Below, in pieces: positions 46,226-48,023 of a stretch of DNA of 64,000 nucleotides. Position 1 is the stretch's first letter. Every line of letters starts with the position of its first letter. The notes beneath the pieces were generated by a model, which ran no database searches, had not been told where the DNA came from, and saw only the letters and a list, made by a program, of their open reading frames with translations. The stretch comes from Eledone cirrhosa (lineage: Eukaryota): assembly GCA_964016885.1 (NCBI GenBank), contig OZ024741.1, positions 270,940,001 through 271,004,000 on the forward strand. The letters run 5' to 3'. The position numbers and the translations under genes are program-made.

Positions 46226-46289
<64 letters not shown>

Positions 46290-46421
46290 CGAAGGAAATG
46301 TGGTAAGGAACCAGGCGGACCATAACGCACCAAAGTACTCAATACTTAGGGTAGTATAGTGGGTAATAGGAACAAGTAAGACCCCGACGGCTTGAGCTCA
46401 GCCGTCGGGGTCTTACTTGTT

Positions 46422-46462
<41 letters not shown>

Positions 46463-46585
46463 CGTGTAATTTTTATTTGGGAGAACTGCTGGATTTTAAT
46501 CTACCAGTCTCTTCTTAGCGCTGAGGGAGACCATCACCGTTATATTGATGTCGATATAATTTGTATATCGATATTAATTTGGGCA

Positions 46586-46709
46586 TCCACTGATGAGTTT
46601 ATAAGAGCCCGCTTGTGTATAAAACTACGGATTATATACAAGTTTCTACATAACCTGGAAATTATTTATCCCAATTTGTAGAAATCTTATAACGAAACGG
46701 CTGTCTGGA
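46586..46709 (+). ncRNA. Hammerhead ribozyme with branched stem-II domain
   Basis: tcca CTGATGA gtttataaga [cttgtgtataa/ttatatacaag][ttctaca/tgtagaa] tcttataac GAAA cggctG TC tgga. Confidence 0.8.
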
Positions 46710-48023
46710 AGGAAAGAGATATTTATTTAATAATGTCTCATATAAAATAATACAACGAATTTTCCACGAAATACTGATTAGTTAGCACCCCAATCACTAA
46801 ATTGGGATAATACTTAAGTATATCCTAATGTTTGTTGAGTGAGATGGAGTTGGTCGGAGTATCGCTTAAGGCTTTCTCTGTTTATGTGACAGGAATATTG
46901 AACGTCAGATCTCGTGGTCAGTGAAAAGACGCGTGGCACAACTCCCCAGTGACAGAAACCACTGCAGATTATGCCTGGCTGAGGCGGCGGAAATAATTTA
47001 ATTAAAATCTGCCATAAACTATAGGTCGGACATAATTGTCAATTGCAGACACACCAGGCTGAACACCTTTTCCGCACAAACATTCGGGGGAGGACCACGC
47101 TCTAACCATGACCCACAATAATAATAACCACCTCTGCCCCGTATCACCATCACCCATCTCAGCGAATTTATTAATTTTAATTTAATTTTATTTTATCTTA
47201 TTTTATTGTACTGCATGTAACCATTTGTAAGCCCGTATTTTGTATATCATGCCGCATACATCACCCCCACCAAAAATCACATCGCCATACACACCTCATC
47301 CTTGCAACATTGTGTTCGATCGGTCTCCTATGATAGGTTTTACCTTACAATCCATAGTAACACGGGATCTTGTAAATACAATGTCGATCATATCACACCA
47401 TCGCCACCACCACCACACCACACCACACATCGTCATATGTCTACCATACACACCCGCAACCTTATCACCCCATGTTCCCTCTGTCTACTCTAACCTACAA
47501 CCCCACGCTAAATTCGACCCTGTAAATGTACTGTCGCACGCACACACACCCACCGCCACTACTAGATACATCCACATACTTCAACAATCATTAACATCAT
47601 TAACATCATCAACATATATCATCCCTCACTCCCAGATCGACTGTATTATATCCGCCCCCCCCCCGTCTGCCTTACCCTGTAACACACAGTAACTTCTGAT
47701 CATGTAATCATTTTGTCGAACATATCACCCCACCACCACCACCATCACCATCACCACAACACACATCGCCATACGTCCATAAACTCTTCTCCCCCGCGTT
47801 CCCTATGTCACCTTTTAACCTGTAACCCATCACACTATTCCATCCTGTATATTTTTGTCGCTCACAACTCCACCACCACCACCACCACAAGACACAACTC
47901 CATACTTCATCAACACCGCCAACACATGCCTCTCCTCCCGAACCAACACAAGTGTGTGTGTCTGTGTGTAAGTAATTTTTACATATACGGGCGTATAAAT
48001 ATGCGTGCGTGTACGCATATATA

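Follow-up and report, generated by a model that had tools for sequence, protein, structure and literature searches.

The near-perfect palindrome at position 46288 of the window (the whole stretch of 64,000 nucleotides analysed here) is, with a probability of about 0.66, two 5'-truncated ends of a Hydra-type Penelope-like element (PLE) placed head to head in (TA)n, produced when two separately primed cDNAs were joined through the self-complementary stem III of a hammerhead. The palindrome spans 46366-46426 and is flanked by (TA)n runs on both sides (Table 1). Its RNA fold gave a z score of -12.5, and 0 of 200 shuffles folded equally well. The centre, 46387-46405, reads ACGGC-TTGAGCTCA-GCCGT, which is stem III with the loop of the hammerhead-like motif at 13344-13439. 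An earlier note had placed the inversion axis exactly in stem III of this hammerhead, and the placement is borne out.

Positions on the element are counted from C17 of the hammerhead, which is set to 0, so that the predicted cut falls between 0 and +1. The left arm of the 46288 copy exceeds the right arm by a tail of ~83 nt. The tailed arm includes the complement of C17 (46386) and thus spans the predicted cut site. Stem III is complete in the tail-less arm, native loop included, and is followed by C17 (46406) and the stem I 3' strand. Since both arms span the scissile bond, this copy was made from uncut RNA. Another hammerhead-like motif (CTGATGA...GAAACGGCTGTC), in which the stem II region is very long, lies just downstream of the palindrome, at 46578-46712.

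Table 1. Coordinates of the elements, arms and junctions in the window.
Feature	Position	Strand	Remarks
Type I hammerhead motif, U3-A8 core variant	13344..13439	+	predicted cut 13434^13435
Hammerhead parts: stem I	13344-13348/13435-13439	+	one change here in 13344-13348
Hammerhead parts: core UUGAGAA	13349-13355	+	
Hammerhead parts: GAAA	13412-13415	+	
Hammerhead parts: stem III	13415-13433	+	
Hammerhead parts: C17	13434	+	
Initiator-like TTAGTC	13392..13397	+	likely capped transcription start; A 13394 (-40) is the wall for most arms, often after an extra G
Tail	13452..13533	+	~83 nt between two fixed 3' ends (+17, +101)
Second head-to-head stub, same family	34094..34300		wall-type junction
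Second stub, tail-less arm	34094-34153	-	ends at -39; followed by a 3-nt insert
Second stub, tailed arm	34157-34300	+	starts at -44
(TA)n target, left flank	46230..46287		
Tailed arm	46287..46392	-	element +101 (tail end) back to -6; terminates in ACGGCT
Microhomology ACGGCT, 6 nt, joining both arms	46387..46392		same junction type in locus L035 and among stem-III-axis loci
Tail-less arm	46387..46423	+	positions -19 to +17; last letters GTTCC adjoin (TA)n
(TA)n target, right flank	46424..46460		

The motif at 13344 has the core positions 3-9, G12-A15.1, U16.1-H17 and the three stems of a Type I hammerhead, with a long loop II and a 5-bp stem III. Its U3-A8 variant is known from Schistosoma PLEs, as described in part of PMC4209133. 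Position 7 varies as expected (G, U, A) across the 41 copies compared, and in 9 of the 41 a C3 stands opposite A8, breaking the 3-8 pair. Weaker cleavage is predicted for this C3/A8 sub-lineage (L023, L027, L054, L103, L113, L122), yet it has spread. Rfam returned no hammerhead match for the whole window at the gathering threshold, nor for the copy in the near-full element L061 at E up to 10. The hammerhead fold of the element is not its minimum-energy fold.

Exact matches to the tail-less ends of the family of 46288 (hereafter the focal family) number 12,391 genome-wide, and most copies are twin stubs of 150-250 nt. The near-full copy L061 has a single ORF at 3185-5339, interrupted by two frameshifts, with a predicted RT followed by a C-terminal GIY-YIG endonuclease. 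The motifs YRDDG, FLDV and YQCNV..TYIG were recognised by eye. DKG is changed to DKT (HSDKTGN), and RLRWRT carries RWR, one change from RWK. The CxCx5C linker (CNCPDGSIC), CxxC (CNLC) and CxH (CKH) are all found, and CCHH is absent as judged by eye, with no alignment. A Pfam search with three pieces of this ORF gave 0 families. The pLTR of L061 measures 1.2 kb and has the hammerhead at its 3' end; the 5' end of the element bears an inverted tailed copy, with (TA)n on that side, and the tail sequence continues into the 5' leader of the ORF. Both a hammerhead in the pLTR and insertion in (TA)n, which are traits of the Hydra clade, occur in the focal family. Judged by motifs matching the definition of the Hydra clade given in part of PMC8557442, the focal family is a Hydra-type PLE. 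At three loci (L048, L128, L129), tail-less stubs (-39 to +17) and the adjoining (TA)n together form tandemly amplified minisatellite units.

Arm ends were mapped at 100 tail-less loci. These, like the other first 100 rows listed below, were taken in order of position, beginning with the largest contigs, and were not drawn at random; rows were classed by eye, and 22 of the mapped loci were corrected by hand. An inverted tailed partner was mapped at 86 of these first 100 tail-less ends listed. The 3' ends were fixed, one at +17 and one at +101 in each insertion, in (TA)n. The other ends of the two arms varied. Of the 86 pairs, 25 had a tail-less arm exceeding the tailed arm by more than 5 nt on the 5' side, 17 showed the reverse, and in 44 both arms terminated within 5 nt of each other. 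In six pairs the arms had no sequence in common, the tailed arm stopping inside the tail. Among 72 joins, hand-set rows being left out, 34 carried inserted bases, often A/T runs, and 38 had no insert and 0-6 nt of microhomology (1-6 nt in 29 of the 38). Independent arm ends, inserts and microhomology are as expected where two cDNAs have been end-joined.

It had been claimed that one arm of 46288 was copied from the other, on the ground that the arms share copy-specific substitutions relative to 13435-13452. The same two substitutions are indeed present in both arms. They are not specific to this copy, however, and constitute a subfamily mark found in 29 of the first 100 tail-less ends listed. 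Such marks agree between the arms in 66 of 72 insertions (L107, the partner of which is 1.3 kb away, was left out), an agreement that is explained by any model with one source RNA. Rare variants were common to both arms in 3 cases and not common in 72, in 35 insertions, numbers too small to tell one RNA molecule from two. With the arm ends independent and six pairs sharing nothing, the claim of copying is not supported.

The axis lies in stem III at 438 loci genome-wide, and this type accounted for 2 of the 100 mapped loci. The loop of 46288 was found in 33 of the first 50 stem-III loci listed, corresponding to ~290 loci, or ~2% of the 12,391. Independent arm ends would be expected to place roughly 0.05% of axes in stem III, and the observed enrichment is therefore about 40-fold. 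The earlier note expected breakpoints to be enriched at hammerheads. This is so in that the axis is non-random; stem-III axes nevertheless make up only ~2% of insertions, and breakpoints are commonest at a wall at -40. The enrichment is what joins through microhomology would give: all three junction classes described below arise when two cDNA ends anneal at ACGGCT, AGCCGT or TGAGCTCA.

The loop is slightly asymmetric, and its polarity bears on how the palindrome arose. Fold-back of a tailed cDNA would leave the loop in the tailed polarity, and fold-back of a tail-less cDNA makes no tail. Exactly one tail was present in 44 of 44 stem-III-axis loci examined (among the first 50 listed, the other 6 all being of a related loop variant). 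At the 33 loci with the loop of 46288, the polarity was that of the tail-less arm in 12, as at 46288 itself, that of the tailed arm in 9, and symmetric in 12. Since the loop of 46288 has the tail-less-arm polarity, simple fold-back is excluded for insertions of this type.

These facts weigh upon self-priming (Arkhipova et al. 2013; proposed in part of PMC3846280), in which stem III or a cleaved end is the point where a cDNA or antisense RNA doubles back and serves as its own template for the inverted arm. Self-priming would account for an axis exactly in stem III with ~40-fold enrichment, for subfamily marks nearly always common to both arms and for the 44 of 86 pairs with near-equal ends, and snap-back from a cleaved end could underlie the symmetric GACCCC-N(0-5)-GGGGTC joins. 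In a fold-back, the second arm is a copy of the first, is not longer than it, and leaves the loop in the polarity of the first arm; the insertions depart from this. The polarity at 46288 and at 12 of the 21 asymmetric focal-family loci is impossible from a folded tailed cDNA, and a folded tail-less cDNA cannot create the tail. The 25 tail-less arms that extend further 5' than their supposed template, the 6 pairs that share nothing, and the stem-III-axis copy L141, with one arm of each of two subfamilies, also stand against it, as do the 30 of 30 anchored arms of the family at 30880 that traverse stem II and the core. We consider self-priming highly improbable. The proposal that ribozyme hairpins act as self-priming points fails both for 46288 and as the main route, the main breakpoint being the -40 wall with its extra G.

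It is worth noting that the stem-III junctions could also have formed after insertion. Palindromes with the axis near the wall at -40 might have lost their centre by slippage between the opposed direct repeats of stem III (ACGGCT, AGCCGT, TGAGCTCA). The original insertion would again be a product of twin cDNAs, the only difference being when the join formed. Long palindromes are prone to deletion, and deletions between short direct repeats do occur within arms (L053, L076, and the cut-site and control rows). Such slippage also predicts exactly the three observed junction classes at similar rates (12, 9, 12). On the other hand, other joins are microhomologous as well, with 1-6 nt in 29 of the 38 insert-free cases, and no extra step is then needed. 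We regard later deletion as unlikely, and joining of the two cDNAs during insertion remains the preferred reading. The recurrent deletions within arms (L053, L076; cut-site and control rows) are of 23 nt, between direct repeats at -29..-23 and -6..0; they remove GAAA and stem III, by RT skipping of the hairpin or by later slippage.

Most arms end at a wall well upstream of stem III. Ends at -44..-38 were found in 87 of 186 arms, and the next 46 nt held 5. Exact 21-mers reaching -39, -40 and -48 numbered 26,474, 20,827 and 5,619 genome-wide. A-40 is the A of TTAGT/TCAGT (TYAGT), which we take to be initiator-like. A non-native purine before A-40 gave 2,699 matches, with G:A of 79:21 in the first 100 rows listed (hand count). 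At the control position A-35 there were 785 matches, with G:A of 43:29 among the first 100 listed after 28 point-mutant rows were set aside. The G excess at A-40 over A-35 gave a Fisher p of 0.007, and since the control is itself G-rich (60%), some of the G signal may not be specific to the wall. Several insertions carry the extra G on both arms. The wall is blurred across -38..-44, where native TTT masks untemplated A's. An internal Inr/DPE promoter in the pLTR is described for D. virilis Penelope in part of PMC2377424, and an untemplated G is the footprint of the cap in LINE-1 and SVA according to part of the review PMC4859970.

Judging from DNA junctions, the wall is likely the start of a capped RNA inside loop II of the hammerhead, and we infer that the majority of stubs are run-off copies of the capped front of this RNA. 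A splice acceptor or trans-splicing at TTTAG/TC was considered as a cause of the wall and rejected: the arms retain AG, and no constant leader precedes AG. In L061 (2953-3185), an RNA beginning at -40 would keep the 3' half of the hammerhead only. As the 5' half of the ribozyme would be missing from such an RNA, cleavage would need a read-through transcript or a second molecule.

A smaller peak of arm ends lies at the predicted cut. Arms beginning at +1 after a non-native base gave 703 matches, the first 100 rows listed comprising 43 strict junctions, ~24 ambiguous ones and ~33 point mutants or deletions. Scaled genome-wide, ~300 strict starts fall at +1 and ~6 one base upstream, at 0. The control at -2 gave 841 matches and 7-10 junction rows in the first 100 listed (60-85 genome-wide). 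That at 0 gave 598 matches, and the first 100 listed held 1 strict junction and ~34 ambiguous ones, in which the C possibly came from the other arm; 12 of the ~34 (6 insertions) are blunt joins of GACCCC to GGGGTC. Both arms began at +1 in 18 of the 43 strict rows, that is, in 11 of ~35 strict insertions (hand count, first 100 listed), and the 8 of these 11 insertions that were inspected in full each had one tail. Since both arms begin at +1 so often although only 5 of 186 arms in the mapped sample end at 0/+1, the templates would have had a physical 5' end at the scissile bond.

The +1 peak is therefore likely the footprint, read from junctions in genomic DNA, of hammerhead cleavage in vivo. 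Cleaved ends had been held to serve as points of self-priming. They appear to matter for a minority, roughly 1-2% of arms, and self-priming from them is not required, although snap-back may explain the symmetric cut-end joins.

An alternative explanation of both the wall and the peak is that RT pauses at RNA structure or at bound protein, at the apical part of stem II and the base of stem III, respectively. An extended stem II with its apex near -45 can in fact be drawn, the control A-35 has a G excess too, and a second family, that at 34850, shows little cut-site peak. However, a pause below stem III should give ends at C17 (0), whereas strict starts number ~300 at +1 and ~6 at 0, and independent pauses fail to explain the 11 of ~35 insertions with both arms at +1. 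No G bias is expected from a pause. Furthermore, the wall stands on an initiator-like motif, as does the wall of the 30880 family ~95 nt upstream of its hammerhead. Structural stalls are thus very unlikely as a common cause, and the capped start and the cut remain the preferred sources of the two kinds of arm end.

The other stubs of the window were examined in the same light. The second stub of the focal family, which had been said to fold inside stem II, has its junction (34153-34157) in the loop of stem II at -39/-44, before the stem II 5' strand. The stem II hairpin was rejected as its axis, because without this strand the hairpin is impossible. The junctions at 14264, 30880-30985 and 34850-34900, which belong to three other families, had likewise been assigned to hammerhead motifs. 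Read by eye, the two arms at 34880 stop at the core's 5' edge, whereas at 14264 and 30900 only one arm ends in the core and the other starts ~230 and ~80 nt upstream, respectively. In the 30880 stub, the right arm begins ~80 nt upstream of the hammerhead and has lost ~55 nt internally at a short repeat (30917-30945), on account of which its junction appears to lie in the core.

All 30 of the anchored arms of the 30880 family run past the hammerhead, and the hammerhead as a general breakpoint magnet was rejected on this count. By eye, about half of the arms of this family stop in the ~45 nt that follow TCACT, a motif ~95 nt upstream of the core. That wall, too, is on an initiator-like motif, and two arms carry G before its A (G+ACTATCC). 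Arm ends of the 34850 family are scattered upstream of the core, often joined at short palindromes. Its predicted cut site gave ~24 junction rows per 100 listed against ~20 at -2, or ~46 against ~25 genome-wide, a weak excess of ~2-fold. The hammerhead of this family has a minimal stem III, and hammerheads of this kind cleave poorly in vitro according to part of PMC4209133. Junctions in or near hammerheads are found largely because the hammerhead sits between the RT start sites and the 5' end of the RNA.

Two further structures in the window may be mentioned. A perfect palindrome at 4324-4727, with 202-bp arms, zero spacer and a one-sided tail, lies in (TA)n and is the twin stub of another family. 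A PLE with RT and GIY-YIG frames occupies 1066-3157, and its flanking 526-nt inverted repeats include the endonuclease-coding end.

The observations can be combined into the following scheme. The positions +17 and +101 would be two RT start sites, one for each nicked target strand, as in vitro work on the PAc protein suggests. Both cDNAs, for which the template would usually be a single RNA or two RNAs with a common source, would run off the capped 5' end of an RNA beginning inside loop II. In a minority of templates the 5' end would be that made by hammerhead cleavage (+1), often for both arms. The two cDNAs would then be end-joined through 0-6 nt of microhomology or with untemplated A/T-rich inserts. 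Stem III with its near-palindromic loop would offer a long self-complementary patch in the copied stretch, and for this reason ~2% of joins would fall there, in all three possible registers.

A more general form of the scheme has, in our judgement, an even chance of being right. An RT dimer would obligatorily copy the front of the RNA twice from two fixed sites and run off its 5' end, be it cap or cut, and the twin strong-stop cDNAs would be joined head to head. The genome would then hold a base-resolution record of germ-line PLE hammerhead cleavage and of reverse transcription of the cleaved RNA. The palindromic loop of stem III may, in addition, bring two RNAs together by pairing, in which case both would be cleaved and copied jointly.

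Inverted truncated copies, tails, (TA)n targets and hammerheads are established PLE traits, as described in part of Craig et al. 2021 (PMC8557442). With the Hydra clade of that study, the focal family has in common the C-terminal GIY-YIG, DKT, RWK (as RWR), the CxCx5C linker and the CxxC and CxH of the endonuclease, as well as the pLTR hammerhead, the (TA)n target, the inverted 5'-truncated copy and the one-sided tail (L061). The clade has tails of 30-40 nt as against ~83 nt. The U3-A8 core, the long loop II, the 5-bp stem III and the predominance of 150-250 nt twin stubs also set the focal family apart from it. The passages of PMC8557442 on the Hydra clade give no mechanism for the inversion, and the part of the retrozyme preprint 10.64898/2026.07.22.740005 considered here does not address the junction mechanism. 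A search of the openly available literature listed no comparable analysis of PLE junctions. The Penelope palindromes of Adineta vaga (part of PMC3846280), for which self-priming was already proposed, resemble the focal family in their head-to-head junctions and initiator-like pLTR motif. In contrast to the model proposed there, the loop polarity, independent arm lengths and non-overlapping arms of the focal family argue against fold-back.

The more than 12,000 young stubs of the focal family discriminate between the models, against the published self-priming and toward twin target-primed cDNAs. In LINE-1 twin priming, the internal site to which the second primer anneals varies, and each arm represents a different part of the RNA. 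In the focal family, unlike LINE-1, the arms overlap, starting as they do from two fixed sites, and the result is a palindrome with a one-sided tail. The two systems would be alike in that two target-primed cDNAs are joined by microhomology and an untemplated G is found at full-length 5' ends (LINE-1 as treated in part of the review PMC4859970).

Poseidon PAc of Anolis carolinensis (Frangieh et al. 2024; part of PMC11167929) is close to the focal family in its two internal RT start sites bounding the tail and its AT-rich target. From these two RNA sites the PAc protein, a predicted dimer, extends both target strands after nicking them, features that would be shared by the focal family to judge from its DNA junctions. 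The part of PMC11167929 considered reports that hammerhead cleavage was dispensable for insertion in vitro and that no RNA-seq ends lay at the cut site; the head-to-head join was not reconstituted there. The focal-family junctions in the genome, in contrast, are piled at the predicted cut and at the likely capped start. The stubs give exact coordinates, -40 for the cap and +1 for the cut, and their end points likely record the start of the RNA and the hammerhead cut made in the cell.
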